A stretch of DNA of 64,000 nucleotides from Candidatus Latescibacterota bacterium (GTDB lineage: Bacteria; Latescibacterota; UBA2968; UBA8231), in NCBI GenBank assembly GCA_965221775.1, contig CBDCSU010000006.1, positions 704,001 to 768,000 of the forward strand. The letters are read 5' to 3'. Made by a program: the position numbers and the translations under genes. A model generated the notes under the pieces. It was not told the origin of the DNA. It saw nothing but the letters and a program-made list of their open reading frames with translations, and ran no database searches. Below are positions 6,963-42,342 of the stretch, piece after piece. Each line of letters starts with the position of its first letter. The first letter of the stretch is position 1.

Positions 6963-9900
6963 TCAGCGGATCAGCATGCAGCGCCGGGTCTCGGCGACCT
7001 CACCCGTGGTGAGCCGGTAGAAGTAGAGGCCGCTGGCGACCGGGGCTCCCCGGTCGTCCGTCCCGGTCCAGCGCACCTTGTGCAGGCCCGGGACGCGCGG
7101 CTCGTCGAGGAGCCTGCGGACCCGCTGCCCGAGGAGGTTGTAGATGTCGATGCGCACCCCTCCGGCGGTCCCCAGCCGGAAGGGGATGACCGTGCCGGCG
7201 TTGAAGGGATTGGGGTAGCTCCGCATCAGCTCCGTGGTGCGCGGCACAGCGGAATCCAGGGCCACCGACGTGGGCGGGGATTCCATGGAGAACAGGCCGG
7301 CGCTCGTGGCCACGTAGAGGGTCGACGGATCGAGGGGGTCCACGGCCACGTCGGTGATCCACGGGACCCCGGGATAGCCGGTGTCGAGGGCCCGCCAGGT
7401 GGCGCCTCGGTCGGGGCTGTGGTACAGCTCGCGGTCGGCCGCCAGGTAGAGGGAATTGGGTTCCCGCGGGTGGCCGCGGAGGCGAGCCGTCCTCCACGAT
7501 CCCGACCGGGGCTCCAGGATCCGGCGCCAGGTCCGCCCGGCGTCGGCGGAGACGAAGCACCCCGCGTCGGAGGCCGCGTAGAGGACACCGGGATCTACGG
7601 GATGCCGGGCCAGGTCCAGCCCCGAAGTCCCTGGCTCGAGGCGGCCCACCACCCTCCAGTCGCGGCCGTCCTTGTGGCCGACCCAGAGGGAGTCGCCGTA
7701 GAGGACGGCCAGGCTGTCCCGCGAAGCCAGCAGGGCTCCTCCCGGGCGCAGGTCTCCCATCGACGAATCCTCGCGCTCGGCGTAGGGCCCCACGCTCTCC
7801 CAGGTCCTGCCGTGGTCCGGGCTCATCCACAGGCCCGCGTCGCCGACGTAGATCACGCCCCGTAGAAGACGGTCGGCGAAGATGGAGGGACGTGGCGGAA
7901 AGGGGTTGGCACTGAAGGATGTGCCGAATGCGTTGCTCTCCACGGGCTCCCAGGTGACCCCGCCGGTTGCGCTGCGCATATAGAGCCTGCCGAGAAGGTG
8001 GGCGATCAGCACCTCGCCATCCCATGGGTCCTGGAAGACGACCTCGTAGATGCCCCGGACCCACGGGAAGTACCGCCAACTCTCCAGCCACTGCCAGGCG
8101 CCGCTCCGCTGTCGGTAGAGGCCTATGTAGCGCTCTCCTTCCCTCGACTGGAGGGAGGTCATGTGCAGACGGTCCAGATGGTCGAACCACAAGGTGCCGA
8201 CGGGAGGACCGGTCTCCTCGACCATGGCGGGGGCGGCCGTCTCTCCCCGGTCGGTGGAGACGTACACGCCTCCCGGGGTCTCCACCAGCAGGCCGGAGGG
8301 ACCGAGGGTCCTCACGCCCTCCACATCGTCGTAGGCACCGAACCTGGCGCCGGTCCCCTGCCAGGTCTCGCCGCCGTCGTGGCTGCGGTACAGCCGCCGA
8401 TCGCTGTGGGCGTAGATCAGGCCGGGCTCGTAGTCCGAGACGACCAGACCCTCGATCGCGCTGCCCACGTCCATGTCCAGCATCCGCCAGGTGGCTCCCT
8501 CGTCCGAGGTGTGGCGAAGGCCCCCATAGACAGGCAGGTAGAACCCTCCCGGCGTCCAGGGATCCGGAACGGGAGGGTCCCGGACATACCGAACGGGACT
8601 GGTTCCCACCGGGCTCGCGCCGGACTCGTCGAGCCGCCAGAGCCGGCCTCCCTCCCCTTCCGAGGAGTCGACCCAGGCATAGGTCCGGCCCGGGTCGGCC
8701 GGATGGGATCCGACACCCAGGGCGCGGCCCTCGACGGGGAACTGCCTCCACCTCCGGCCCCCGTCGTCGGAGATGAAGATGGCCCCCTCCGCTGCGGCGT
8801 AGAGTCGGTCCGGGCGATGGTCGTCGACAAAGGCGGCGTCCACGCCCTCGGGCATGGGGACCGCCGACCATGTGGCCCCCCCGTCAAGGGTCGAGTACAC
8901 CCTCTTGAATCCGGAGTGAGGGGGTCCGCCCTCGACGACGTAAGCGGTCAGGGGGTCCTCCGCGTCGCCCCGGACCGTGCTGGTTACATCGAGGTGACTG
9001 AAACGCCAGCCGAAGGTACCGATTTCCGCGAGCATGAAAGGGGCGGGCTGCCAGGTGGCACCTTCGTCGGCAGACCGCCATACGCGCCATCTCGTGCGGC
9101 CGTACCAGGCCCCGCTCGGCGCAGGGTGGATCTGCTGGAGCGGGACTTGCAGGGGGATGCCTGGTCCCTCGGGCCTCCAAGCGCCGGCCAAGGCGGGCAC
9201 GGCGCCGGGGTCCGTCCCCGCGGGCTCCACGACGCGCGGGGGGTCGCCCACGGAGCCGACGCGGACACGCGAAGCCTCGCTCTCGCCTACGTTGCCGTTG
9301 GCGTCCTCCACCACGACGCTGACCGAGTATGCCCCCGCAGGTCCCTCCCACGAGGCCTCGTACACGCCATCCCTTTCGGCCATGGATACCTCCGCCCGCA
9401 GTGTGGAGTCCGGGAGGCCGTGAATCCGGGCGGCCACGCCGCGGATCGGGCTGCCTTCGTGGATGAAGCGGCGGCCCACCCGGACGCTCAGGCCCTCCCG
9501 GGTCGGCGAGAGCCGCACGTACTGCACCCTCGGAGGTGTGATGTCAGGGAGCCGCGTGACCATAAAAGCCGCCGTGTCGGTCCACACCTGGAACCGGGTG
9601 CGCACCTGAAGCACGAAGGTCAGTTCCGTCCCGGCGGCCCCGGCCAGGGCGAGGAACTCCGGCGAGCGCGAGCTGCGGGCGCTCTCCGGTCCCTCGGCGG
9701 CAAAGCGGACGGCCCCGTCGGACACCCGCAGGGCGGCGTTGCCGGGACTGGCCAGATGGAAGCTCAGCGCCGGGAGCAGGTCCGGCGCCGTCGCCGGCAA
9801 TCGGAGATCCAGGTGGAAGAGGTCGCCGGGATCGATGCGGTCCGTCCCCTGCCAGTCCCGCACCTGCCACTGCAGTCCCTCCTGCCGGGCGCTGATCACC

Positions 9901-11666
9901 GGGATCTCCAGATCCCGCCGGCCGATCGTGTCGGCCCCGTCGACGACGGTGAGCCGCAGCCTCGCCACTTGGGAGGAGGAAAAGCCGCCGGACACGCGGG
10001 CCCGGGGCGGGGTCGGCAGGGCGCCTCCCAGGTGGTGGACGTCCGGCCGCAGCTCGGGCAACTCGAAACGAGAAGGGGTGACGGTGAGCAGGTCGTCCAG
10101 CGGCTGCAGTGTCAGGACCGCCCCGCGGGTGGTCCGCCCGCCCCGGTTCACGGGGTCGAATTGCAGCACCCCTTCCTCGCCGGCCACGAGGACGCCGTCG
10201 CCGGTCTGGTCGCGCACCGTCACGACCCCGAACTCGATCCGCGGTCCACCGATCTCGACCCGGGCCTCGAGCCCTCTCTCCGTCACCTCGATGGCGGTGA
10301 CGCTGAACGTGCTCCGGCCCTCCCCGTCGGCGGAACTCGGGTTCGTGTGGGCCGTGAACTGCGTGCGTCCGCCGGGTCCGAAGACGTCGGTGGCGTCGCC
10401 GAGGTTGCCTCCGTGGGCCTCGGCATACGCCTCGTCCCCGGCCCAGAAGTCGAGGTTGTCGCCGCCGTGGAGCGGGTCCGGCGTGCGGCCCATGGGGAAC
10501 CCGCCCTCCTGCCAGCGGCCGTCGGCGCACTCCAGATCGACAACCCAGTGAGACTGGGAGACGTCGCCGGTGCGGTTGCCGGTGACGTGCCAGATGAGCA
10601 GGCCCTCGGCCGGGATCCCCCGGTCGTACCAGGAGGAGCGGGTCCGGTACTCCAGCAGGAAGTACTCCTCCCCGCCGGCGGGGATGCGGACCAGGTCTCC
10701 CGTCCTCGCCACGTCCCGCAGGACGATCCGCTGCGACGGTTGGTCGATCTCGGTGATGGCGGACCATCCGAGGCGGAGACGGCTCCACGCGGAGAAGCTG
10801 ACGGGGCCGTCGCCGCCCCCCCAGCCGAGGGCCCCCCAGCCCATGAGGCCCCAGTTGCCGATGCCCGCCGAATCGTCGGCCGGGTCCCGCGGCTCCTCCC
10901 GGCTGAGATAGGCCACGTTGTAGAGGTCCTTCAGCCCGAAGAGGGTGTGCCCCAGCTCGTGGGCGACGGTGCCCGCCGCCTCCGGGAAGGAGCGGCTCTG
11001 GGCGACCAGGCCGAGGCGATAAGTGATCGGGTTCCCCGCGAGGTCCGGGTCGGCGGTGGCCGCGGGTTCGAGGAGCCCCAGATCGCCGATCCCGGTGGCG
11101 CCCCCGAGGAGGAAGTTGCGCGGCAGGGCGGGTGTGAGAAGGACGAGGAGATCCACCTCTCCATCGTCGTCGCCGGAGTCCGGCCGCCCGTCGGGGCCGT
11201 CGCTGTCGAACCGGGCGAGGTCCAGATCTTCGTCCACCTGGCGCAGGATCTCCCGCACGAAGTCCGCATAGCGGCCGGGTTTCGTGGGACCGGCCGCCAC
11301 GTAGTCGATGGCGTCGCCCGAGGCGAGGTAGCGCCTTGGCGCCACGACGCCGCGGAGGGTCAGGCTGCCGAAGGACATCTCCCGGTAGAAGTGGCTGACG
11401 CTGCCGGGACGATCCGGGTCGAAGAGAGACTCGGCCCAGAAGGGCACGCCGGCCTGCTGGCCGCGGAAGCCGGCGAAGACCACCAGGGCGGTGACCTGCG
11501 AAAGGGGAGTGGAGGCGGCGGCCCCGGCCGGTCTCGAGGCGGCGATCGGGGCCTCGCCCCGGGAGGGCGGGGACGCGGCCCCGGCGGTCTGGGTGGAGAC
11601 CGCCAGAAGACCTGCCAGCAGCCAGGGGGATCCCCGGCGCCCCCTGCAGCCGGGGATGTCGCCCAT
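6963..11666 (-). CDS. Secreted M6 (immune inhibitor A-like) metalloprotease with BNR/Asp-box propeller and C-terminal FlgD-Ig/T9SS-like domain
   Basis: Signal-like N-terminus; AHELGHTLFGLKDLY and GNWGLMGWG; repeated SxDxGxTW Asp-boxes; YPNPFN..ASGLYFYRL..MLIR. Start is inferred. Confidence 0.85.
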   Translation of the reverse strand: MGDIPGCRGRRGSPWLLAGLLAVSTQTAGAASPPSRGEAPIAASRPAGAAASTPLSQVTALVVFAGFRGQQAGVPFWAESLFDPDRPGSVSHFYREMSFGSLTLRGVVAPRRYLASGDAIDYVAAGPTKPGRYADFVREILRQVDEDLDLARFDSDGPDGRPDSGDDDGEVDLLVLLTPALPRNFLLGGATGIGDLGLLEPAATADPDLAGNPITYRLGLVAQSRSFPEAAGTVAHELGHTLFGLKDLYNVAYLSREEPRDPADDSAGIGNWGLMGWGALGWGGGDGPVSFSAWSRLRLGWSAITEIDQPSQRIVLRDVARTGDLVRIPAGGEEYFLLEYRTRSSWYDRGIPAEGLLIWHVTGNRTGDVSQSHWVVDLECADGRWQEGGFPMGRTPDPLHGGDNLDFWAGDEAYAEAHGGNLGDATDVFGPGGRTQFTAHTNPSSADGEGRSTFSVTAIEVTERGLEARVEIGGPRIEFGVVTVRDQTGDGVLVAGEEGVLQFDPVNRGGRTTRGAVLTLQPLDDLLTVTPSRFELPELRPDVHHLGGALPTPPRARVSGGFSSSQVARLRLTVVDGADTIGRRDLEIPVISARQEGLQWQVRDWQGTDRIDPGDLFHLDLRLPATAPDLLPALSFHLASPGNAALRVSDGAVRFAAEGPESARSSRSPEFLALAGAAGTELTFVLQVRTRFQVWTDTAAFMVTRLPDITPPRVQYVRLSPTREGLSVRVGRRFIHEGSPIRGVAARIHGLPDSTLRAEVSMAERDGVYEASWEGPAGAYSVSVVVEDANGNVGESEASRVRVGSVGDPPRVVEPAGTDPGAVPALAGAWRPEGPGIPLQVPLQQIHPAPSGAWYGRTRWRVWRSADEGATWQPAPFMLAEIGTFGWRFSHLDVTSTVRGDAEDPLTAYVVEGGPPHSGFKRVYSTLDGGATWSAVPMPEGVDAAFVDDHRPDRLYAAAEGAIFISDDGGRRWRQFPVEGRALGVGSHPADPGRTYAWVDSSEGEGGRLWRLDESGASPVGTSPVRYVRDPPVPDPWTPGGFYLPVYGGLRHTSDEGATWRMLDMDVGSAIEGLVVSDYEPGLIYAHSDRRLYRSHDGGETWQGTGARFGAYDDVEGVRTLGPSGLLVETPGGVYVSTDRGETAAPAMVEETGPPVGTLWFDHLDRLHMTSLQSREGERYIGLYRQRSGAWQWLESWRYFPWVRGIYEVVFQDPWDGEVLIAHLLGRLYMRSATGGVTWEPVESNAFGTSFSANPFPPRPSIFADRLLRGVIYVGDAGLWMSPDHGRTWESVGPYAEREDSSMGDLRPGGALLASRDSLAVLYGDSLWVGHKDGRDWRVVGRLEPGTSGLDLARHPVDPGVLYAASDAGCFVSADAGRTWRRILEPRSGSWRTARLRGHPREPNSLYLAADRELYHSPDRGATWRALDTGYPGVPWITDVAVDPLDPSTLYVATSAGLFSMESPPTSVALDSAVPRTTELMRSYPNPFNAGTVIPFRLGTAGGVRIDIYNLLGQRVRRLLDEPRVPGLHKVRWTGTDDRGAPVASGLYFYRLTTGEVAETRRCMLIR

Positions 11667-11867
11667 GAGGCTCGCTCGGATCAACAGGGTTGCGGTGGGT
11701 GGACCGCCCCCCGCCCAAGGCACGATGGACGGGGAGCGGCCCCGGCCATGCGAGGCCCGGTCGCATGGCGCAGGTCGAAGATCCACCCCAAGGAACCTGC
11801 AAAGGTGGACCTTGACCAGATCCGGCGACCGGGCCGAGAGGCGGCGGTCCGGTCAGCCGCCGCGCTC

Positions 11868-11978
11868 TCAGGCGGCGAGGGAGAGGGTGGCGTAGTGGGC
11901 GAAGGTGGACAGGCCGGCGAAGCACAGACTGATGGCCACGGGAATGGCGATCTCTCCGGTGATGCGAAGGATCCTCAT
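11868..11978 (-). CDS. 36-aa hydrophobic small protein (sigma54 peptide family, member 1)
   Basis: MRILRITGEIAIPVAISLCFAGLSTFAHYATLSLAA; RBS GAGGAGG; sigma54 promoter at 12026-12041. Confidence 0.7.
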   Translation of the reverse strand: MRILRITGEIAIPVAISLCFAGLSTFAHYATLSLAA

Positions 11979-12025
11979 GTCGTCCTCCTCGGGCGAAGGG
12001 TCGTGAAGCTGACGCCCTCCACCTA

Positions 12026-12041
12026 TGCAACCGACGTGCCA
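12026..12041 (-). promoter_or_regulatory. sigma54 (RpoN) -24/-12 promoter
   Basis: Minus strand reads TGGCACGTCGGTTGCA, a full match to TGGCACG-N4-TTGCW. Confidence 0.85.
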
Positions 12042-12104
12042 GGTCCGTTTCTCGGGGTGGCATGCGCCGAGGCGGACTTCACTGGTGACCCGTTTCGCAC
12101 CAGA

Positions 12105-12124
12105 GGTGTTCACACGTGAACACC
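12105..12124. promoter_or_regulatory. Candidate enhancer (UAS) for a sigma54 activator
   Basis: Perfect 9-bp inverted repeat GGTGTTCAC-AC-GTGAACACC containing TGT-N10-ACA, between two divergent sigma54 promoters. Confidence 0.6.
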
Positions 12125-12244
12125 CCTCACGCGCCCGGGCCGGTCGCTGGCCGGCTCCGGCCTGCCCTTTCAGGCCGCCGGCGTCTGAGGTCGCGGGTCA
12201 GGGCCCCTTGTGCGGGCGAGCAGGATCCTGCCAGCCCCGGCGAC

Positions 12245-12260
12245 TGGCACAGGCCTTGCG
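12245..12260 (+). promoter_or_regulatory. sigma54 (RpoN) -24/-12 promoter
   Basis: TGGCACAGGCCTTGCG. Confidence 0.8.
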
Positions 12261-12294
12261 CACACCTGGACGTCTCGAAGAGAAGGAGGAAGGG

Positions 12295-12414
12295 ATGGTA
12301 CGGACGAAGCTGTTGCAGGACTTGGCGCTGCCAGGTGCCGTGACTCTGAGCTATGCCTACGCCGCCGTCATGGCTTTCACGAGGCTCGGACAGGTGCTCG
12401 AGAACCTGGCCTGA
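12295..12414 (+). CDS. 39-aa hydrophobic small protein (sigma54 peptide family, member 2)
   Basis: MVRTKLLQDLALPGAVTLSYAYAAVMAFTRLGQVLENLA; RBS AAGGAGGA. Confidence 0.7.
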   Translation: MVRTKLLQDLALPGAVTLSYAYAAVMAFTRLGQVLENLA

Positions 12415-12433
12415 ACGCGCGGCCCCGGCGCCG

Positions 12434-13558
12434 CTAGGGCTCTTCCAGGATCGCCAGGGCCGCCTCGATCCGGCCCACGGCGGCCCGGTCCGCCTCCAGG
12501 GCCGCGCCGATCAGCCGGCGGGCCTCGGCCAGCTCTTCGGGGGTGTACTCCCCGCGGCCGTGAGCGGCATCGACGAGGGCGGACAACTCCACCAGGGCCT
12601 GGTGCTCGCGGCCGTAGTCGGCGGCGGCCGCGGCCAGCGGCTCCGCCGCTTCCGGGAGCAGGCCGGTCAGCTCGCGCATGTAGTCAGCCGCAAGCTCCCG
12701 CCGCCAGGTGAGGATCCTGGCGTGATGCCGCGTCGGCTGCTTGACCGCGTCCGCGGACTCGAAGGCGGCGCTCCAGGCCTCGTAGGCGGCGAAGCCCTGG
12801 GGCCGGGTCTGGGGCCGTCCGGCCTGCTCGAAGCGGGTGCCCGCGGCAAAGGCGGCGGCGTTGCGCAGGGCCATGAGGTGGGTCGCCCGCTCGTCCGCCT
12901 CGGTGGGCCCCAAGTGGGCGGTCACGTTGAACCACCCGCCGGGATCACCGGGGCCGAGGGCGTCGTAGCGCACGGCGTAGTCGACCTCGACGAAAGGGTG
13001 GCGGATGGTGCAGGTCTCCGCCTCGGGGTCGTAGCCGACGATGAGCCCCCAGCAGTAGGCGTGGTGCGCGGGGTGATCGCTCTGCTTCTGCTCCAGGCTC
13101 ATGGGCTGCCACACCAGCACCGGGATCCCCCGCTCCAGGCTGGCCACGGCGGCATCCCGGGCCTCGGCCCTCAGCGCCGGCCAGTCGACGCCGACGCTCT
13201 TGTTGTTGGCTTCGTAGACGCGGAACCGGGCCAGCTCGGGCAACAGGTCCACGGCCAGGCTCCAGTCGAGGTTGTCGTGATAGACCATGGCGCCGCCTTC
13301 CTCCATGGCGAACTGGAAGGCGTGTCCCAGGACGCCCTGGAGGCGCGCCATCGACCACTCGGGGCGGCCGGCGGCCGCCATCAGGGGATGGAGGCAGGAG
13401 GCGAGGGTGGTGCCCTTGTGGGGCTGCAGGGGCTTGACGTCGACCGTGACGTTCATGGGCTCGGGCTCCGGGTCCCCCGCACCGTGGCCGTAACCGATGG
13501 AAGCGGCGCCCAGGACGGCGAGGACAACCCCGCCGGCCCGGGCGCAACCCCCATTCAT
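12434..13558 (-). CDS. Hypothetical protein, possible BtrH/C39-like papain fold
   Basis: Coding-like ORF starting 4 nt after the TonB receptor. ASLERGIPVLVW and WGLIVGYD are reminiscent of C39-like domains. Confidence 0.55.
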   Translation of the reverse strand: MNGGCARAGGVVLAVLGAASIGYGHGAGDPEPEPMNVTVDVKPLQPHKGTTLASCLHPLMAAAGRPEWSMARLQGVLGHAFQFAMEEGGAMVYHDNLDWSLAVDLLPELARFRVYEANNKSVGVDWPALRAEARDAAVASLERGIPVLVWQPMSLEQKQSDHPAHHAYCWGLIVGYDPEAETCTIRHPFVEVDYAVRYDALGPGDPGGWFNVTAHLGPTEADERATHLMALRNAAAFAAGTRFEQAGRPQTRPQGFAAYEAWSAAFESADAVKQPTRHHARILTWRRELAADYMRELTGLLPEAAEPLAAAAADYGREHQALVELSALVDAAHGRGEYTPEELAEARRLIGAALEADRAAVGRIEAALAILEEP

Positions 13559-13562
13559 GGGT

Positions 13563-16500
13563 TCAGCCGCCGAGTCCCCAGGTGACGGCCAGCTTGATCC
13601 GCCGGCCCTTGGGGTCGTGGGTGAAGCCGTCGTACGCCTGCTCGATGTTGACCAGGGGCGGCCTCTTGTCGAGCAGGTTCATACCCGAGAGCACCATGTT
13701 GGCGCCCATGGGCAGGCTCCACAGAAAGCTCACATCCAAGGTGACAAAGGATTCGATGGTGCCGAACAGGTCGCTGACCGCCTCATTGCCGGAGTCCAGC
13801 GACCCCCGGTCCTCGTAGGACGAGATGTAGTTGAGGTAGCTCACGAGGCCGTAGGCTTTCCAGTGATAACCGGCGGAGGCCCGCCCCTTCAGCTTGGGGA
13901 GGGAAGTGGCGATCGGATTGCCGAAGTTCAGGTAGCCGGCCGCGTCGGCGCCTTCCTGCAGCACCAGGTCGCCCAGCATCAGGGCCTTCGTCTCGTACTC
14001 GAGGATGTAGCTGCCGTCCAGGCTGGCGGAGAGTTGCCCCGGGCCCGCGGGGCTCCGCGTCCCCAGGTGCATGTCGAAGCCCGAGGTCTTCACCCCCGGC
14101 CAGTTGACGATGTCGACCTGCACCCGCTCGAGTGCGGAGGCCGCGCAGGTCCCCGTTCCGACCCCGTCCGGGCAGACGATGAACCCCTTCAGAGCCTCCT
14201 TGTTCGCCTCGTCGGCATAGAGCTCTGTGATTCTCCCGTGCGGCATGGCACCGATGACATCGCTGAAGTCGTAGCTCCAGTAGTCGAAGGTCGCATCGAG
14301 ACCGGCCTCCGTGGCAAAGACGAGGCCCGCGTTGTAGGTGAAGGCCCGCTCGGGCTTGAGGTCCTTGCTGCCGAACCGGTCCACCGTCTGGTAGGCGCCC
14401 GTCTCGTTGATCCACTCGAGCGTCGACAGGGGGTTCTCGTTCACGTCGTCCAGCGACGGCGTGCGGAACGTCGTCTGCACCGAGCCGCGCAGGAACAGGG
14501 ACTGGGTGGAGGACTCGGCCAACTGAAGGCGCCAGCCGAGCTTGGGATCGAAGCTGCTGGCCACGTCGTGGAACTCGTAGTTGGCGGCCAGCTGCGTGTC
14601 GATGCGCGGACCCAGGCTCAGGGGAATCTCCGCGAAGAGGCGGTGCACCGTCTGCGATACGTCATAGGGGTTGTTCACGTTGGTGAAGGCGTAGGGACCG
14701 AACCTGTCCTCCTCTGAACACCCGTCATCGCCCACGACCGGGCAGGGGTTGATGGTCACGTCGCCCGCGTCGTTGGGATCGCCGCTGGCATTCAGCAAGC
14801 GGAACTGGTAGCCCGTGGCGTAGCTGGCCACGTCCTCGATCCAGGTTCCGCTCAGCGTGGCATCGGCAACCAGCATGTCCGCCGTGCTCTGCAGATCGAC
14901 TTCATTGTCTGCCAGCCAGTTCCGCAACTCGGGGGTGTTGGCCAGCTCGGAGCGGTAACCGGGGTTCGCCTGGCTCGCATACCTGGAGCCGTGCTGGTCC
15001 GTGTGCTCGATGGCATTGCCGAAGGGGTTGTAGTACTGGCAGTTGCCCTGACCCGCCGCCTGGCCGTTGAGCGGACCGAGCCGCATCCCCGCCAGAGAGT
15101 TGTTGTCCGCCTCCACGCCGACGCCGCAGTCGGGTCCTCCGAAGCCGCGGAAGCCGAGGAAGAGCCGCTCGATGTACACGCCCGGAAGGTTGTAGTTGCC
15201 CTCGGTGCGGGAGTAGGAGAGGCCCAGGTCGAAGTTGGCCTCGCGGCCTCCCAAGGAGAGGTCGCGATTCGCCGAGGCCGCCAGGCGCATCGTGCTGGAG
15301 TCGCGGCCCAGGATGCGGCCGGGACCCGAGTTGCCGAAGGGGCGGCCGTTGAAATACCAGTTCTCGCCGGCCTGGCACTCGGCGTGGTACAGGTCTCCGT
15401 CCGACGCCCCGTACTCCTCGCAGAAGGCCTGCCGTCCCGGGTGGTCGGGCGCGACCTCCATGATGCTCGTGTCCGTCAGGGGGAAGGGAGGGTACGAAGG
15501 GGTGGTGTACCAGTTGGGGATGTCGGCCCGGGCCAGCAGACCTTCGACGTGATACTCCGTGCCGTCGGCCAGGGAACCGTTGATCTCGGAGAACAGACGG
15601 AGATGACTCATCTCCTCGATCAGGTTCTCGTACTGCTGGTAGCGGAAGCGGCAGGTCCAGGACTCCCGGAAGCCGCCGAAGGACTCGCAGTCGGGGGCGT
15701 GGATGGCAGCGGTCCAGGGGGCCGGGGCGCCGACGGCGAAGGTGCCCGGGTTCCCCAGGCTCGACCATCCGAGGCGCTGGCCGCCGCCGTGCCACGGCTG
15801 CAGCAGGTAGTCCCTTTCCGTAGACGGCAGCTCGCTGCGTCCCCGCCACTCCGCGGCCACGACCGCATGGGCGCCGCCGAGCTGGCCGCCCCATATGGCG
15901 CCCACGTCGGAGTCCCCCGCCCCGGCCAGGTACTCGTGCGCGGCGGAGACCTCGAAGCCCGTGAAGTCGGAGCGGGTCAGGAAGTTGGCGACCCCGGCCA
16001 CCGCGTCCGATCCGTAGATGGCCGCGGCCCCCTCCTTGAGGACCTCGACCCGGTCCAGGGCGATGGAGGGGATGGCGTTCACGTCGACGAAACGGCCGCC
16101 GATGAGGCGCGCCGGGACGTAGGTCTGGCGGCGGCTGTTGATCAGCACCAGCGTCCGCGAGGCCCCCAGGCCGCGCAGGTTGACGTTGGCGATGCTCTCG
16201 GACAGCGTGGCGGCCTGGTTGGCGTTGTACCAGCTGCTGCGCTCGCCGATCACGCCGTGGCTGGCGCTCAGGTTCTTGAAGAAGTCGACCGCCTGCGGCG
16301 AGCCTTGCTCGGCCATCTCGTCGCGGCCGGTCACCGCGACGGCGTAGGTCGAGCTGATGTGGGAATCCTTGATCGCGGTGCCGGTGACTACGACCTCCTC
16401 CAGCTGGACGGCGCTGGCGGCCAGCTCCACCCGGACCGTGGCGGTCTCTCCGGCGGCGACCATGACGGTGGTGGTGGTGCTCTCGTAGCCGATCAGCTCG

Positions 16501-23700: not shown

Positions 23701-26020
23701 CGTCGCGGCGGGAACCTCCCTCCCTTCTCTGGACAATGAGACCGGCATAACCTCGGTGGCCTTCTCTCCGCAGGGCACGACCCTGGCCGTCGGCTCACTA
23801 GGTGAGATCAAGCTGTGGGACGTGGCGGCGGGGAGCATCGTCACCACCTTCGAGGTACGGACAGGCTGGATGGGCCACCTGGTCTTTTCCTCTGACGGGT
23901 CCACCCTTGCCTCGGCATCGTCGAACACGATCACCCTGTGGGACCTGGCGTCCGGGACAGAGCTCGCCACCGTCGATCACTCCACCGAGGTCTATCCCGT
24001 GGAGTTCTCTCCGGGCGATGCCTCCCTCGTCGTCAGGTCGTCGGACGGCGTCCTGCTCCTGGAGGTCTCCACCGCGAATCTCGCCCGCCTTCGGGGCCAT
24101 ACGCACGCGACCGGAGTCAATTCCGTGGCCTTTTCCCGGGATGGCGCCACCCTCGCCACCGGTTCGATCTTCGTTGCAAACGTGTGGGACATCGTCACCG
24201 GGAGAAGCGTGGCCACCGCCACTCATCCAGCCGAGGTCAGCGCCGTGGCCTTTTCCCCCGTTGACGACGTTCTCGCCTTTGGCTCCTATGACGACACAAT
24301 CAGGCTGTGGGATGTCGAGAGGCGCGGCGACATCGCCAGCCTCGCAGGAGGGTTCGACGGCGTCATCTCTCTGGCCTTCTCCCCGGACGGAGCTACTCTC
24401 GCCGCGGGATACCAGGAGGGCATCGTCAACCTGTGGGATGTGGCCAGGACCCAGGCCCGGCTTGCCCTCGAGGGACACATGAGCGGGGTGCGGTCCGTGG
24501 CCTTCTCCCCCGATGGCGCCACCCTCGCTACCGGCTCCGTGGACGAAACCCTCCGGCTGTGGGATGTGGAGACGGGGACGGAGACCGCCCTTCTCGAAGG
24601 CCACGACGGTTGGGTCAATTCCGTGGCCTTTTCCCGGGACGGAACCCTCGCCGCCGCATGGGGGCCCACCGTCCGGGTATGGGATGCGGGGACCTGGGAA
24701 GAGGCCGCCGATCCCATGAGGCTTGGGGGTTGGGGCTATGCCGTAGCCTTTTCCCCCGATGGCACCAAACTCGCCGCCGGTTCCGGGAACACCGTTCTGC
24801 TGAGAGAGACCGGGACCTGGAGATCGCTCGCTACCTTCGATGGGCACACGGAGAGGATCAATTCCCTGGCCTTCTCACCCCATGGCGCCACCCTTGCCAG
24901 CGGCTCCCGGGACGGCACCGTTCTGCTGTGGGACATCGCCCCGGAGCCCCAGGCTCTGAGGAGGGTTTCGGGCGACCGCCAGGAGGGGCTCCCGGGGGCG
25001 CTCCTGGCCGACTCCCTCGTCGTCGAGGTGCGCGACCAGTATGGGGACCTGCTGGAAGGGGCCCAGGTGAATTTCGCGGTGACCAGGGGAGATGGAACCT
25101 TGACCGCGGCTACCGTGATCACGGATTCCATGGGGAGGGCCGCCACCTTCCTGACCTTGGGGAGCCGACAAGGCCGCAACACCGTGACGGCAACCGTGGC
25201 GGACGTCTGGCCGGTGACTTTCCGGGCCACCGGGCTGCCCATTCCCGGGGCTCTGATCAGACTCTCCGGAGAGGAGCTGGAAGGGCCGGCCGGCTCCGCC
25301 CTGGCCGAACCGTTCGTCGTCGAGGTCAGAGACCAGGTCGGCTCCCCATTGGCAGGGGCCGTGGTCACCTTTTCCGTCACCGGCGGCGGAGGGACGCTCT
25401 CCGCTGCCACCGACACCACGGATGCCGACGGCCGGGCCGCCACCAACCTGACCCTGGGCGAGGAACTGGGGGCCAACTCCGTCGAGGCAACCGTAGCCGG
25501 ACTCGAGCCGGTGACCTTCACGGCCACGGCCAGGGCTACCCCCGACTTCGACGGCGACGGCGAGGTCGGCTTCGACGACTTCTTCCTCTTCGCCGAGGCC
25601 TGGGGAGACAGCGACCCCCGCTTCGACCTGGACGGCAGCGGCTCGGTGGACTTCGCCGACTTCTTCCTCTTCGCCGAGAGCTTCGCCCAGCCGGCGCGGG
25701 CCAAGCTCATGGCCCTCGCCCGCGAACGGATCGGACTTCCCGATGGCCCCCAGCTGGGTCAGAACTGGCCCAATCCCTTCAACAGCGAGACCGTCCTCTC
25801 CTGGTTCGTGCTGCAGCCGGGGCCGGCGCGCCTGGAGGTGTTCGCCCTCACCGGGCAGCGGGTCGCGGTCCTGGCCTCGGGACACCACGAGGCCGGCCTC
25901 CACCGCCTCCACTGGGACGGGCGCGACCACCAGGGACGGCCCCTGGCCAGCGGCACCTACCTCTACCGGCTGGTCACCGCCCAGGAGGTATGGGCGCGCA
26001 AGCTGGTCCTGATCCGCTGA
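20744..26020 (+). CDS. Giant secreted protein: metzincin domain, WD40 propellers, Big_1 Ig domains, EF-hand/dockerin-like motif, FlgD-Ig/T9SS-like C-terminus
   Basis: Signal peptide; HELGHVFGLDH with Met-turn IMSY; many SVAFSPDG..LWD repeats; DFDGDGEVGFDDF..DLDGSGSVDFADF; WPNPFN..KLVLIR. Confidence 0.88.
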   Translation: MKDQLRHRSRSLALAGLILAAIPAADASPPQSAGGHAPFSRVVYDGESGQAPSASKAAALKDWPQRTVRMIYFRPEDRPFRAEVVDSMKAAIVQIQAFFAQQMREHGHGDVTFQYETDAQGEPLVHRVVGEHADEHYIEQGGAVQEVSQAVLRGGRDIDLVVIDQSSPVLPSPSGGAGGLAFIGQVNRQPFGTALVPASAHWTTAAHELGHVFGLDHDFRDGTYIMSYGFQSPLRLSACSAGLLTVHPYFNPDVPGAPGPPTTTIDFTSPPGYRAGSSSHPVRLTVGGSAGLHQVLFVGATNPPHFAAGSLEVLGCRSYSGESAADVEFDYDGAVPSEPLTSLSDPVVHPLGVRAVDQYGRWVVEGFVVHQLSPLHIGSLEEPGAVSALAFAPVGTSVAAAGDPLFGLWDVQTRQMVASFGEAPAASVAFSPDGATLATAAYDGKVRLWDVSARTITSTLEGRSRFAASLAFSPDGATLAAVSSRSTVTLWDLETETETAVLSHDAPVSFVAFSPDGSTIATATWSPRVHLWDAAGTHLAVLAGHGEWTNGLTFSPDGATLAASGTDGLVKLWDVAARRDVADLEHRRIVRSMAFSPDGATLACASGYIVRLWDAGTRLRIDVLPDGQFAEAVDFSADGRTLVSGTRKGLELWDASEWLQPRPHGLVMISGDGQEGAPGAVLEDPLVVEVQDQYGVAMAGQPVVFTVAQGDGRLGGRFTMENTETDANGRAESRLTLAPGPGAVTVEARLFGSDPVVFGAAAIGEPPVGDGDPLKWHLPDRATARLGKGATGLGFGSPVAFTPDGQRFAVATSIGIWVYDSTTARELALIAGASATTLAFSADGTTLAAGAGGTIRLWDVASGESRASLRGHDSVWSVAFSPDGSMLASASGTMVKLWDVATRQNTATLDGLGGTVMFLHGGATVGVLGWDGILKLWDATSEPIRSLFEVQLGWGPSTSFPMTQMAFSPDGVTLAAGWGDTIRLWDVAAGTSLPSLDNETGITSVAFSPQGTTLAVGSLGEIKLWDVAAGSIVTTFEVRTGWMGHLVFSSDGSTLASASSNTITLWDLASGTELATVDHSTEVYPVEFSPGDASLVVRSSDGVLLLEVSTANLARLRGHTHATGVNSVAFSRDGATLATGSIFVANVWDIVTGRSVATATHPAEVSAVAFSPVDDVLAFGSYDDTIRLWDVERRGDIASLAGGFDGVISLAFSPDGATLAAGYQEGIVNLWDVARTQARLALEGHMSGVRSVAFSPDGATLATGSVDETLRLWDVETGTETALLEGHDGWVNSVAFSRDGTLAAAWGPTVRVWDAGTWEEAADPMRLGGWGYAVAFSPDGTKLAAGSGNTVLLRETGTWRSLATFDGHTERINSLAFSPHGATLASGSRDGTVLLWDIAPEPQALRRVSGDRQEGLPGALLADSLVVEVRDQYGDLLEGAQVNFAVTRGDGTLTAATVITDSMGRAATFLTLGSRQGRNTVTATVADVWPVTFRATGLPIPGALIRLSGEELEGPAGSALAEPFVVEVRDQVGSPLAGAVVTFSVTGGGGTLSAATDTTDADGRAATNLTLGEELGANSVEATVAGLEPVTFTATARATPDFDGDGEVGFDDFFLFAEAWGDSDPRFDLDGSGSVDFADFFLFAESFAQPARAKLMALARERIGLPDGPQLGQNWPNPFNSETVLSWFVLQPGPARLEVFALTGQRVAVLASGHHEAGLHRLHWDGRDHQGRPLASGTYLYRLVTAQEVWARKLVLIR

Positions 26021-28612: not shown

Positions 28613-28696
28613 TCAGGCGCCGAAAAAGAACGGGCCGAGGAAGCAGACGACGATGGCGAAGGGAGCGGCGATCTCGGCGGGGCGGAAGGTCTGCAT
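28613..28696 (-). CDS. 27-aa hydrophobic small protein (sigma54 peptide family, member 3)
   Basis: MQTFRPAEIAAPFAIVVCFLGPFFFGA; RBS AAGGAGGA; sigma54 promoter at 28741-28755. Absent from the ORF track. Confidence 0.7.
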   Translation of the reverse strand: MQTFRPAEIAAPFAIVVCFLGPFFFGA

Positions 28697-28740
28697 GACA
28701 TCCTCCTTCGGAACGGTGGTGAGTTGTCGCCCTCACCACC

Positions 28741-28755
28741 GCAAGCGCCGTGCCA
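28741..28755 (-). promoter_or_regulatory. sigma54 (RpoN) -24/-12 promoter
   Basis: Minus strand reads TGGCACGGCGCTTGC, followed immediately by the 9-bp inverted repeat GGTGGTGAG-N8-CTCACCACC (28715-28740). Confidence 0.82.
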
Positions 28756-28840
28756 GACCCGTTCTCCCGGGGACCGCTCCGGCCACGCGAGTCAGAGGTG
28801 GCCGTCTCCGCACACGGGTGTCCGTTGGCGGACGCCCGCC

Positions 28841-41154: not shown

Positions 41155-42342
41155 ATGATCACCGAACTCAAGATCGAAGGCTTCAAGAGTTTTGGGTCCC
41201 CGGAAGAGACGATCGAGTTGGGGCCGCTCAACTTCGTGGTAGGCGCCAACGCATCCGGAAAGACAAACCTGCTCTCCGCCCTGCGATTCCTTCAGAACGC
41301 TGTAATCCATGACGTGTCCTATGCCGTGAGCGAGATGGGCGGCAATGCCGAAGTCAGGAACAAGCGCCTTCGCCAGCGCAGTGAACCGAAACCGGTCCGG
41401 CTGTCGCTGAAACTCGAGACGGAGTTCCAAGTCTCCCTGCCGGAAGACTCGAGCCAGAAGAAGGACCTGGATGTCGTGCGATCCTTCGAGTACCAGCTGG
41501 TGCTCGACCTGAGGAGTGATGCGACTCCCAGCATCGAAGCAGAATCCCTGAAAGCAGAACTCGTGCAGAACGGCAAGAGGCATGCCATTGGCCTGCAGAG
41601 GTCTGGCACCATGCTTGTCGTCATGGATCCGACAACGGGGTATGCCAGGGAGAGGACGCTTGCCGTCCCCGAGCAGGAACCAACTCGACTCGCTCTCGTT
41701 GGAGTCGGGTTCCTCCCAAGGCCGCGAACCATCCTCCGGGAGGAGATCGACGGCTGGAGATTCCACAACTTCATTCCAAGTGTTGCCAGGCAACCATATC
41801 GAGAGGAACCCGACGCTACCCTTGGTCCAGCAGGAGAGAGGCTTGCCGCGATCCTGCACGGGATGAGCGAGGAGGACCGAGCTTCGATCTCCCGGGAGCT
41901 TACGGCGATCGTCCCCGGACTCAAGATTGAAGACACCCTGGCCTTTCAGATCGTGGAGGACAAGGTCAGGGCCTCCATCATTCCTGCCTCCGTCTCAGAC
42001 GGTACCGTCCGGTTGCTCGCCCTGCTCGTCGTCACTACCTGGAGCGTTCAGGACTCCTCCCTCATCGCGATCGAGGAGCCGGAGAACGGCGTCCATCCTC
42101 ACCTGGCGGAATACCTCGTGGAGATCCTGAGGTCCGCCTCCGAGCAGAGTCAGGTCATCGTAACGACGCACTCCCCCGCCCTGCTCGATCACCTGGAACC
42201 TCAGGAGGTCATCCTCTGTGACAAGAAGGATGGATTCACGAAACTCCAGAGTGCATCGAGCGTCGCCGACATCGACCAGTTTCGAAAGCACTTCAGCCTT
42301 GGCGAGCTGTGGTCACAAGGTGCGGTCGGGGCCGTCCCGTGA
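41155..42342 (+). CDS. AAA_21/AbiEii-type ABC ATPase (defence-associated)
   Basis: MITELKIEGFKSF, VGANASGKTN, SDGT, IEEPENGVHP, QVIVTTHSP; visibly lower GC than neighbours. Confidence 0.88.
   Translation: MITELKIEGFKSFGSPEETIELGPLNFVVGANASGKTNLLSALRFLQNAVIHDVSYAVSEMGGNAEVRNKRLRQRSEPKPVRLSLKLETEFQVSLPEDSSQKKDLDVVRSFEYQLVLDLRSDATPSIEAESLKAELVQNGKRHAIGLQRSGTMLVVMDPTTGYARERTLAVPEQEPTRLALVGVGFLPRPRTILREEIDGWRFHNFIPSVARQPYREEPDATLGPAGERLAAILHGMSEEDRASISRELTAIVPGLKIEDTLAFQIVEDKVRASIIPASVSDGTVRLLALLVVTTWSVQDSSLIAIEEPENGVHPHLAEYLVEILRSASEQSQVIVTTHSPALLDHLEPQEVILCDKKDGFTKLQSASSVADIDQFRKHFSLGELWSQGAVGAVP

Follow-up and report, generated by a model that had tools for sequence, protein, structure and literature searches.

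Enhancer-dependent transcription by sigma-54 RNA polymerase, the NtrC-type enhancers that serve it and small membrane proteins are each textbook matter, and several described systems bring some of these parts together. The upstream activator sequence (UAS) of NifA reads TGT-N10-ACA, the Psp response runs on PspF and sigma-54 and comprises pspABCDE and pspG, and type I toxins and phenol-soluble modulins are hydrophobic or helical peptides of 20-45 amino acids (aa), multi-copy and often unannotated, with a dedicated stress or quorum regulator. MgrB, a membrane peptide with 47 aa, belongs to the PhoQ/PhoP regulon and acts as an inhibitor of the kinase PhoQ (PMC2789325, 10.1101/438515), and the Bce modules of Firmicutes are described (PMC11009047, PMC9169098) as a BceAB (FtsX-type) ATP-binding cassette (ABC) transporter together with the intramembrane-sensing kinase BceS. 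Here we describe a divergent pair of micro-genes, which we call pepM (minus strand) and pepP (plus strand), in a window of 64,000 nucleotides (the whole stretch of DNA that was analysed, G000:C6:704001-768000) from a genome, G000, of 5.36 Mb and 70% GC. On balance we think it probable that the two genes encode enhancer-dependent single-pass membrane micro-proteins belonging to a Bce-like envelope-stress and efflux circuit.

In its control region the locus resembles the NtrC/NifA-type sigma-54 promoters, having -24 GG/-12 GC elements with exact spacing, a TGT-N10-ACA dyad enhancer some 80-140 bp upstream, two adjacent enhancer sites, and in the same genome both rpoN and response-regulator bacterial enhancer-binding proteins (bEBPs) with an HTH_8 domain. 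It differs from them in that its half-sites read TGTYC/GRACA, its regulon consists of exporters and micro-open reading frames (micro-ORFs) and not of nitrogen genes, and a single enhancer lies between two divergent micro-genes; a candidate activator, bEBP-1, also reads GAFTDA at the sigma-54-contacting loop, which in bEBPs is canonically GAFTGA. The motif form of a NifA-type UAS regulon is thus present, no nif context was seen, and the genes concerned are micro-ORFs, MacB permeases and HlyD, so that the locus works like the NifA-type UAS family and is not a member of it. The sequence-only reading of this DNA had reported two promoters, two GGAGG sites, frames of 36 and 39 aa and a shared palindrome, and on re-reading the sequence all of these were found where it had put them (Table 1), with the ATG of pepP at 12295 and not 12296. 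Measured from its start, enhancer site 1 is 81 bp from the -24 element of pepM and 138 bp from that of pepP, upstream of both, and a repeat search extends its palindrome to 12-nt arms at 92%; site 2 begins about 23 bp from it, toward pepM. The pepM promoter begins 63 nt 5' of the ATG, with its GG and GC elements kept in the related genomes G007 and G002, and transcription is predicted to start near 12015(-); for pepP the predicted start lies near 12271(+), and all four P-type units known to us have their promoter 50-52 nt 5' of the ATG.

Three exact TGGCAC-N5-TTGC sites occur in the window against a shuffle mean of 0.06, and 0/100 dinucleotide shuffles reach three, which excludes chance; only a weak excess remains once one mismatch is tolerated (7 sites vs 3.1 expected, with 7/100 shuffles reaching 7). 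Genome-wide the exact consensus is barely enriched, at 15 sites vs ~10 expected from base composition, and two of the 15 lie 204 bp apart, an arrangement for which arithmetic gives ~0.01 expected pairs. Four of the 15 precede peptides of the family described below, and at another seven an ORF with a Shine-Dalgarno (SD)-like site starts 56-106 nt further on; these seven ORFs are two PspA/IM30 genes, Cpn10, Hsp20 and an extracytoplasmic-function (ECF) sigma factor, all five Pfam-confirmed, together with a 150-aa and a 64-aa ORF. The other four are intragenic or lead to no convincing ORF. Because the sites precede the peptides and ORFs with SD-like sites, five of them confirmed by Pfam, we take the exact motif to mark real promoters in G000, and in this lineage chaperone and envelope-stress genes appear to be under sigma-54 control. 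The sequence-only reading had made its promoters depend on an rpoN gene in the genome, and one is present (Sigma54_DBD, 206.8 bits), along with 15 strong Sigma54_activat (bEBP) genes. The likeness to the Psp response lies in an envelope response built on sigma-54 and a bEBP with small membrane proteins, and in the two PspA genes behind exact sigma-54 promoters; however, by eye those two promoters bear a different upstream repeat, of the GATGGCGG type, and our peptides match no Psp family.

The pair forms part of a family of four units in G000, three of them inside the window. When a hidden Markov model (HMM) of the four peptides was run against 93,915 stop-to-stop frames of >= 18 aa, only those four matched (E = 6e-22 to 8e-12), the next-best frame having E = 8. 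The peptides are 27-39 aa long, with a net N-terminal charge of 0 to +3, a basic N-terminus and after it a stretch of 19-26 uncharged residues; the membrane helix was judged from Kyte-Doolittle hydropathy, for which the best 17-residue mean is 1.45-2.54 across the family (2.03 from residue 10 in pepM). In size (< 50 aa), in having one helix of at least ~19 residues and in a positive-inside N-terminus they agree with small single-pass membrane proteins, and the pattern of basic N-terminus, E/D-x-A-x-P and hydrophobic helix survives between subfamilies at 19-28% identity. We also considered a lipoprotein or signal-peptide reading and rejected it, as by eye there is no lipobox and several members have Gly or Ser in place of the Cys. 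The claim that the pepM and pepP peptides align stood in part: they do so gaplessly over residues 1-21, and when the profile of the pepP subfamily is compared with that of the other members the probability is 91.6% (E = 8e-7, columns 1-21), but pepP escapes an HMM trained on its three paralogues, and pep3, left out in the same way, is recovered only at E = 0.67. Pairwise blastp gave no match between pepM and pepP, its pepP rows being void since the peptide had been taken from 12296, out of frame. Paralogy of pepM and pepP is therefore supported by the profile comparison, on short sequences. Similar to MgrB, these are very small single-pass membrane peptides whose genes are, here by prediction, targets of a two-component system, which would allow feedback within the membrane; they differ from it in having no sequence relationship to it (Pfam/NCBIfam), in being four paralogues and not one, and in their sigma-54/bEBP in place of OmpR-type control.

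Table 1. Features of the micro-gene family, its candidate activators, its surroundings and other exact sigma-54 promoters in G000. Positions without a prefix are those of the window; (.) denotes no strand.
Feature	Position	Strand	Basis and remarks
Sigma-54 -24/-12 promoter of pepM, TGGCACGTCGGTTGCA	12026..12041	(-)	exact TGGCAC-N5-TTGC
GGAGG ribosome-binding site of pepM	11984..11988	(-)	5 nt ahead of ATG at 11978; identical in G007
pepM, 36-aa micro-ORF MRILRITGEIAIPVAISLCFAGLSTFAHYATLSLAA	11868..11978 (stop codon included)	(-)	orthologues in G007, G002
Enhancer site 1, perfect palindrome GGTGTTCAC-AC-GTGAACACC (TGTTC-N6-GAACA)	12105..12124	(.)	9+9 arms
Enhancer site 2, weaker dyad CTGGTG-N10-CACCAG (TGGTG-N7-GGTCA type)	12082..12103	(.)	kept in G007
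Sigma-54 -24/-12 promoter of pepP, TGGCACAGGCCTTGCG	12245..12260	(+)	exact TGGCAC-N5-TTGC; kept in G007
GGAGG ribosome-binding site of pepP	12285..12289	(+)	5 nt ahead of ATG
pepP, 39-aa micro-ORF MVRTKLLQDLALPGAVTLSYAYAAVMAFTRLGQVLENLA	12295..12414 (stop codon included)	(+)	ORF list; relatives in other genomes
pep3, 27-aa micro-ORF MQTFRPAEIAAPFAIVVCFLGPFFFGA	28613..28696 (stop codon included)	(-)	orthologues in G002, G004, G006, G007
Sigma-54 promoter of pep3, TGGCACGGCGCTTGCG	28740..28755	(-)	exact consensus
Enhancer site 1 of pep3, GGCGTCCGCCAACGGACACC	28817..28836	(.)	starts 79 bp upstream of -24 element; second site then follows
Fourth member, 38-aa ORF	C6:998593-998706		54% identity to pepM (tblastn E = 1e-7)
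bEBP-1, 461 aa, Response_reg + Sigma54_activat + HTH_8	G000:C6:2124899-2126281 (L026:3400-4782)		Pfam
bEBP-2, response-regulator bEBP, paralogue of bEBP-1	~C6:309452-310849		
GC-rich hairpin right after pepM stop	11840..11864	(-)	minimum free energy (MFE) structure; no U-tract
GC-rich hairpin after pepP stop	12417..12463	(+)	inverted repeat and MFE structure; no U-tract
374-aa ORF, convergent with pepP	12434-13558	(-)	no Pfam family; 83-87% identity in G007 and G002
1567-aa M6-like secreted peptidase gene, 3' of pepM	6963-11666	(-)	Pfam matches
Exact promoters before two PspA/IM30, Cpn10 (GroES), Hsp20 and ECF sigma factor genes	C4:263679, C5:50087, C4:914098, C6:602758, C5:586730	(+), (-), (+), (+), (+)	

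Units of this family occur in relatives as well. The sequence-only reading had proposed an HMM search of related genomes, and among 40 genomes of the class it turned up 13 further units in 4 of the 9 other genomes of the genus (G002, G004, G006 and G007), with none in the 31 genomes of other genera. A search with one 9-residue motif of the M and 4 subfamilies (those of pepM and of the fourth member), over one genome per species for 185,579 species, returned the same four assemblies only. It had also held that relatives should keep the reading frames and not just the DNA, and in the 17 units of the five genomes (four in G000 and 13 in relatives) the sigma-54 promoter, ribosome-binding site, start and frame are kept in 17/17, and the stop as well, save in the G002 orthologue of pepM (L007:1507-1602), where a TGA at codon 33 gives 32 aa, the sole early stop of the set. 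In every unit the ATG is preceded, at 50-64 nt or in two cases 108-109 nt, by a sigma-54 element with <= 1 mismatch, and a GGAGG-type site lies 5-8 nt ahead of this conserved ATG. The two exceptions in spacing, L005 and L010 of the 38-aa subfamily in G007 and G002, carry a ~48-nt insertion in the 5' untranslated region (5'UTR) that shifts the promoter to that distance, and in the G007 unit the enhancer dyad is interrupted too. G007 retains the divergent pair, and G002 keeps pepM in place while its pepP-type gene is missing from the pair locus and found on another contig in a MacB-permease cluster; relatives of pepP in G002, G006 and G007 have 69-74% identity. HMMER over 1.84 billion representative proteins gave 14 matches, of which the 13 inspected are small unnamed members of 29-139 aa, some carrying false N-terminal extensions, and the fourteenth is 1270 aa. 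The expectation that standard annotation would miss such genes was only partly borne out, since 12 unnamed family clusters already exist in a set of 5.8 billion proteins, though some members had been called with the false extensions just mentioned.

The enhancer follows the same units. TGTYC-N6-GRACA with <= 1 mismatch lies within 260 bp upstream of 16/17 of them, and a 244-bp window would by chance contain one or more of them in 1.4% of cases (319 sites in the genome at <= 1 mismatch); exact matches number only 12 in 5.36 Mb. The dyad begins 78-81 bp before the T of TGGCAC in 10/17 units, and a weaker second dyad follows ~22 bp beyond site 1 at the same place in pep3, in the 64-aa gene (p64) and in MacB/HlyD promoters across the class. 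Aligning G000 with G007 we found both ORFs, the UTRs, the promoters and the enhancer sites conserved and the centre of the palindrome changed, and the 115-bp spacer between enhancer and pepP promoter has indels and little identity; arms kept and centre altered are seen in G002 as well as G007. Kept arms, a changed centre and a drifting spacer are the footprint expected of protein-binding half-sites. An upstream activator site at looping distance, kept in relatives, is thus present, and taken with the promoters it makes it very likely, on sequence grounds, that the micro-genes are real sigma-54/enhancer-controlled units.

We next consider whether they are translated, which we regard as likely, somewhat less firmly so than their control. 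Across the four ORFs and six relatives the proposed frame has GC at third codon positions (GC3) of 0.82-0.93 with GC1 of 0.53-0.64 and GC2 of 0.41-0.53 (GC1/2/3 of 0.53/0.53/0.89 in pepM and 0.64/0.41/0.82 in pepP, GC3 of 0.93 in pep3), whereas a 203-bp intergenic control is flat at 0.71/0.71/0.75 and known genes have GC3 of 0.92-0.99. Variable alignment columns are distributed 25/19/39 over the codon positions, and the only indel within a subfamily is one whole codon, in frame. The test for synonymous bias that had been put forward came out mixed: pooled over six roughly independent orthologue pairs, the ratio of nonsynonymous to synonymous change (pN/pS) is 0.53 (Fisher p = 9e-4), with 0.21-0.56 in the pepP subfamily, but paralogues compared with one another give ~1. 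Peptide pN is 0.05-0.18 vs 0.01-0.04 for the bEBP-1 gene, and with pS in the latter only 0.04-0.17 the genomes are close, so that the selection test has low power. Predicted transcripts fold no better than shuffled ones (z = 0.0, +0.4, -0.4 and -1.3). On balance we favour fast-evolving translated peptides, possibly with an added RNA role.

The enhancer is not confined to the pair, and here the claim of a dedicated locus fell, for besides the two further peptide units the same enhancer type is found at a 64-aa helix-turn-helix (HTH) protein and at MacB-type exporter operons. In G000 it heads, with a sigma-54 promoter, three units that encode none of the peptides. One is an operon of HlyD and an ABC-ATPase, divergent from bEBP-1, and 3' of bEBP-1 lies a 452-aa kinase (HK-1) with two transmembrane (TM) helices at ~16-39 and 43-66, joined by the 7-residue loop RNLDYPA. 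Another is a run of ~12 tandem duplicated MacB_PCD+FtsX permease genes of ~800 aa on one strand (C6:2131823-2159266; the Pfam check was made on the first gene), behind a single one-mismatch sigma-54 promoter (C6:2160206) that has an exact TGTCC-N6-GGACA 103 bp upstream. The last is the gene of the 64-aa HTH-like protein (G000:C5:978487-978839, L080), with a sigma-54 promoter that matches exactly and an enhancer of tandem TGTCC type; orthologues exist in G002, G006 and G007, and in G006 a similar gene immediately precedes a peptide unit. In Pfam the protein scored below every cut-off; it has weak blastp similarity (E = 0.02-0.2) to the HTH_8 C-termini of bEBPs and as a free-standing HTH protein could compete for the enhancer as an anti-activator. 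A paralogous module (C6:299300-312150) begins with a hybrid site and TGGCACGGGATTTGT and encodes HlyD, an ATPase, FtsX permeases, bEBP-2 and a similar two-helix kinase (HK-2) with the 4-residue loop DEKP. The TTG start of HK-2 overlaps the TGA stop of bEBP-2 (cTTGA, L051:11547-11550, G000:C6:310846-310849), which suggests that the two genes are translationally coupled.

This regulon is wider than the peptides. Searched in 132 genomes of the class, the pattern GTYC-N6-GRAC-N55-85-TGGCAY-N5-TTGC matches 47 times, in 30 of them, vs 3 times for a reversed control, and outside the genus it marks 24 loci, of which 8 lead MacB-type permease N-termini (Pfam positive in 5/5 tested), 5 lead HlyD-type genes (2/2) and 11 are unresolved or chance-like. 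All five distant genomes tested have a bEBP-1 orthologue at 62-74% identity; in G059 it stands back to back with such an enhancer-promoter, and another distant genome has a bEBP-2-like gene 9.6 kb downstream in an enhancer-headed operon. Within the genus the bEBP-1/HlyD intergenic region is nearly invariant in five genomes, and the genomes with bEBP-1 orthologues at 92-98% identity are exactly the four others that bear the peptides, whereas in the five congeneric genomes that lack the peptides nothing closer than paralogues at <= 42% exists and no enhancer-promoter match is credible. In two genomes a peptide unit also sits near a regulator, with one unit ~5 kb from bEBP-1 in G006 and the pepP unit of G002 among MacB-type permease genes 3 kb before bEBP-2. 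We conclude from these comparisons that the enhancer is probably part of an old exporter regulon and that the micro-ORFs and the 64-aa gene would be recent recruits to it. By eye the sites come in two flavours, TGTTC/GAACA at the pair and TGTCC/GGACA at pep3, the 38-aa unit, the 64-aa gene and module 1, from which we would guess that pepM and pepP answer to bEBP-2.

The exporter side is what recalls the Bce modules. Similar to them, MacB/FtsX-type permeases and an ATPase (FtsX, MacB_PCD and ABC_tran by Pfam) stand beside kinases with two TM helices and loops of only 4 and 7 residues, and the regulon would induce its own transporter genes, as predicted from their enhancer-promoters. Unlike them, the activator is of NtrC type (Response_reg + Sigma54_activat + HTH_8) acting at -24/-12 promoters and not an OmpR-type BceR, and there are HlyD adaptors, a dozen tandem duplicated permeases and micro-protein targets, in another phylum. 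Under the reading we favour, an envelope signal would reach the two-helix kinase, possibly via a MacB-type transporter as in Bce modules, and the kinase would phosphorylate the bEBP, whose dimers would bind the two-part enhancer (12105-12124 with 12082-12103) and form a ring. By DNA looping this ring could open both flanking sigma-54 promoters, one enhancer thereby serving two genes, each of which would need sigma-54 RNA polymerase and the NtrC-type ATPase. Two monocistronic mRNAs would then yield single-pass membrane peptides of 36 and 39 residues, with the basic N-terminus inside the cell, E/D-[ILF]-A-x-P at the membrane edge and a helix of 19-26 residues, and these would be inducible membrane outputs that act on the kinase or the exporter by analogy with MgrB. 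That they are accessory or feedback subunits working on either partner in the membrane is a tentative suggestion; what they look like from their sequences is unnamed, lineage-specific additions to an envelope-defence circuit. More speculative still is the idea that an ancient sigma-54/NtrC exporter-kinase circuit was turned into a launcher for micro-proteins, which would tune the kinase-transporter complex or select among the permeases while the 64-aa HTH protein competes for the enhancer. A structure prediction of HK-2 residues 1-75 (two copies) with a pepP alignment scored 0.01 and counts neither for nor against such contact.

Several observations weigh against this reading. The peptides match no known small-protein family, so that their role is argued by analogy only: Pfam and NCBIfam at E <= 1 returned nothing for them apart from one chance MamV row at 0.095, and in the Protein Atlas they match only unnamed clusters at <= 0.82, as high as shuffled sequences reach. 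There is no bEBP gene inside the 64-kb window, and bEBP-1 and bEBP-2, though most likely the activators, are assigned by association only. The co-occurrence of bEBP-1 with the peptides within the genus could reflect one loss event, and the peptide-free genomes are 76-96% complete. The loci from which the enhancer consensus was derived are, with their orthologues, also those on which it was counted, so the counts are not independent. As to coding, stop-free frames are common at 70% GC (pepM lies within an 81-aa ORF and a 109-aa stop-to-stop frame), between G000 and G007 the pepM ORF is no better conserved than its 5'UTR, and it is the pepP and pep3 subfamilies that supply the selection signal, pN/pS being ~0.3 to 1.5 on few changes in the M and 4 subfamilies and 0.9-1.1 between paralogues; such unevenness fits relaxed or diversifying evolution, or else constraint at the nucleotide level. 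To these may be added the failure of the leave-one-out model to recover pepP, and the conserved peptidase gene downstream of pepM, given which the minus-strand promoter may serve more than pepM.

Some of these points are what other explanations build on. The peptides might be cargo, produced on induction, drawn out of the membrane or periplasm and secreted through the HlyD/MacB-type exporters of the same regulon to serve as toxin, surfactant or signal, for which phenol-soluble modulins with the Pmt exporter and MacAB with enterotoxin STII offer parallels. Such an explanation would account for the enhancer type common to peptide and exporter genes, for several paralogues that evolve faster than the bEBP-1 gene, for peptide genes that stand alone with no partner ORF, and for twelve paralogous permeases whose variable periplasmic domains suit diverse substrates. 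We nevertheless think it unlikely, as there is no signal peptide, double-glycine leader or nearby processing or immunity gene, the helices are by eye uniformly hydrophobic and not clearly amphipathic, and the exporter regulon is class-wide while the peptides occur in only 5 of 41 genomes searched, which implies that the primary job of the pumps is another. Less probable again is that they are stress peptides similar to the type I toxins TisB, DinQ and Hok, which would depolarise the membrane and slow growth under envelope stress. Being small, hydrophobic and multi-copy, the peptides do resemble both type I toxins and phenol-soluble modulins, and one hydrophobic helix in 27-39 aa, four copies per genome, very tight promoter control, conserved 5'UTRs and a lineage-restricted, fast-evolving distribution would all suit a toxin; yet no antisense or overlapping partner or Pmt-like operon was recognised, control is enhancer-dependent, and a sigma-70 consensus scan of 11600-12600 on both strands, crude at 70% GC, found 0 sites. 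The transcripts also lack the excess folding that usually gates translation of such toxins, and in MFE folds the strong GGAGG is not obviously sequestered.

We give equally little credit to the possibility that the products are sigma-54-dependent small RNAs with incidental ORFs, or transcripts with a dual role. The pN/pS of ~1 between paralogues and in two subfamilies, 5'UTRs at least as conserved as the ORFs, short units that each have a terminal hairpin, and the cheapness of open frames at this GC content speak in its favour, but against it stand the frame-specific GC3, the GGAGG site 5-8 nt from a conserved ATG in every unit, the conserved stop position, the in-frame indel, the hydrophobic pattern kept across distant subfamilies and folding z-scores near zero. 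Rfam on 11000-13000 at E <= 1 likewise returned only a chance mir-665 row (21 bits vs a cut-off of 52). On the minus strand there is in addition a slim chance, compatible with our preferred explanation, that the unit serves mainly as promoter and leader for the 1567-aa M6-like peptidase gene, with pepM as its upstream ORF. The two genes lie on the same strand with a ~200-nt gap in all three genomes that have pepM (G000, G007 and G002), no other promoter-like site was found in that gap, and the hairpin after pepM is without a U-tract. Against this, pepP and pep3 are monocistronic and each faces a convergent gene, pepM is a clear paralogue of these standalone genes, and its stop codon is directly followed by that stable GC hairpin. 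Enhancer-controlled membrane micro-proteins remain the explanation that we prefer for the pair.

If correct, a circuit with micro-proteins as its membrane-level effectors would be an undescribed wiring into enhancer-dependent transcription. Annotation captures bacterial micro-proteins poorly, and the regulator is known for few of them; in this case sequence alone could link an entire family to a promoter class, a two-part enhancer, candidate activators and a regulon of MacB-type exporters with intramembrane-type kinases. The logic of a Bce-like transporter with an intramembrane kinase is also indicated outside Firmicutes and under sigma-54 control, as a prediction in an uncultured lineage. In the literature we found no description of sigma-54-dependent micro-proteins or of sigma-54-controlled MacB modules, a provisional statement since supplements and most subscription journals lay outside the search, and the main text of one sigma-54 regulon survey (PMC12316311) has none of 'Gemmatimon', 'MacB', 'small protein' and 'PspA'. 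What we provisionally regard as new is the standalone micro-gene family on enhancer-dependent promoters, tied to a sigma-54-controlled Bce-like MacB exporter regulon in one sub-lineage of one genus.

As to the surroundings of the pair, a canonical terminator scan found none after the micro-genes, and the hairpin that follows pepM may, from its predicted fold, act as one. The 1567-aa protein has weak matches to Peptidase_M6 and Sortilin-Vps10/BNR and a C-terminal FlgD_ig, a tail similar to sorting domains. Logan contigs from four metatranscriptome runs (two studies, marine and sponge), compared with 10000-14500, partly cover the flanking peptidase, 374-aa and TonB-receptor genes and give zero cover over ~11510-12415; such contigs cannot show absence, and they are thus silent on expression of the pair. 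Elsewhere in the window, two close pairs of one-mismatch sigma-54-like sites occur at 24760-24897 and 41573-41618, a class of site that is near chance level. The gap between pepM and the peptidase gene contains nested perfect inverted repeats, in which 11754-11764 pairs with 11825-11835 and 11745-11753 with 11761-11769.

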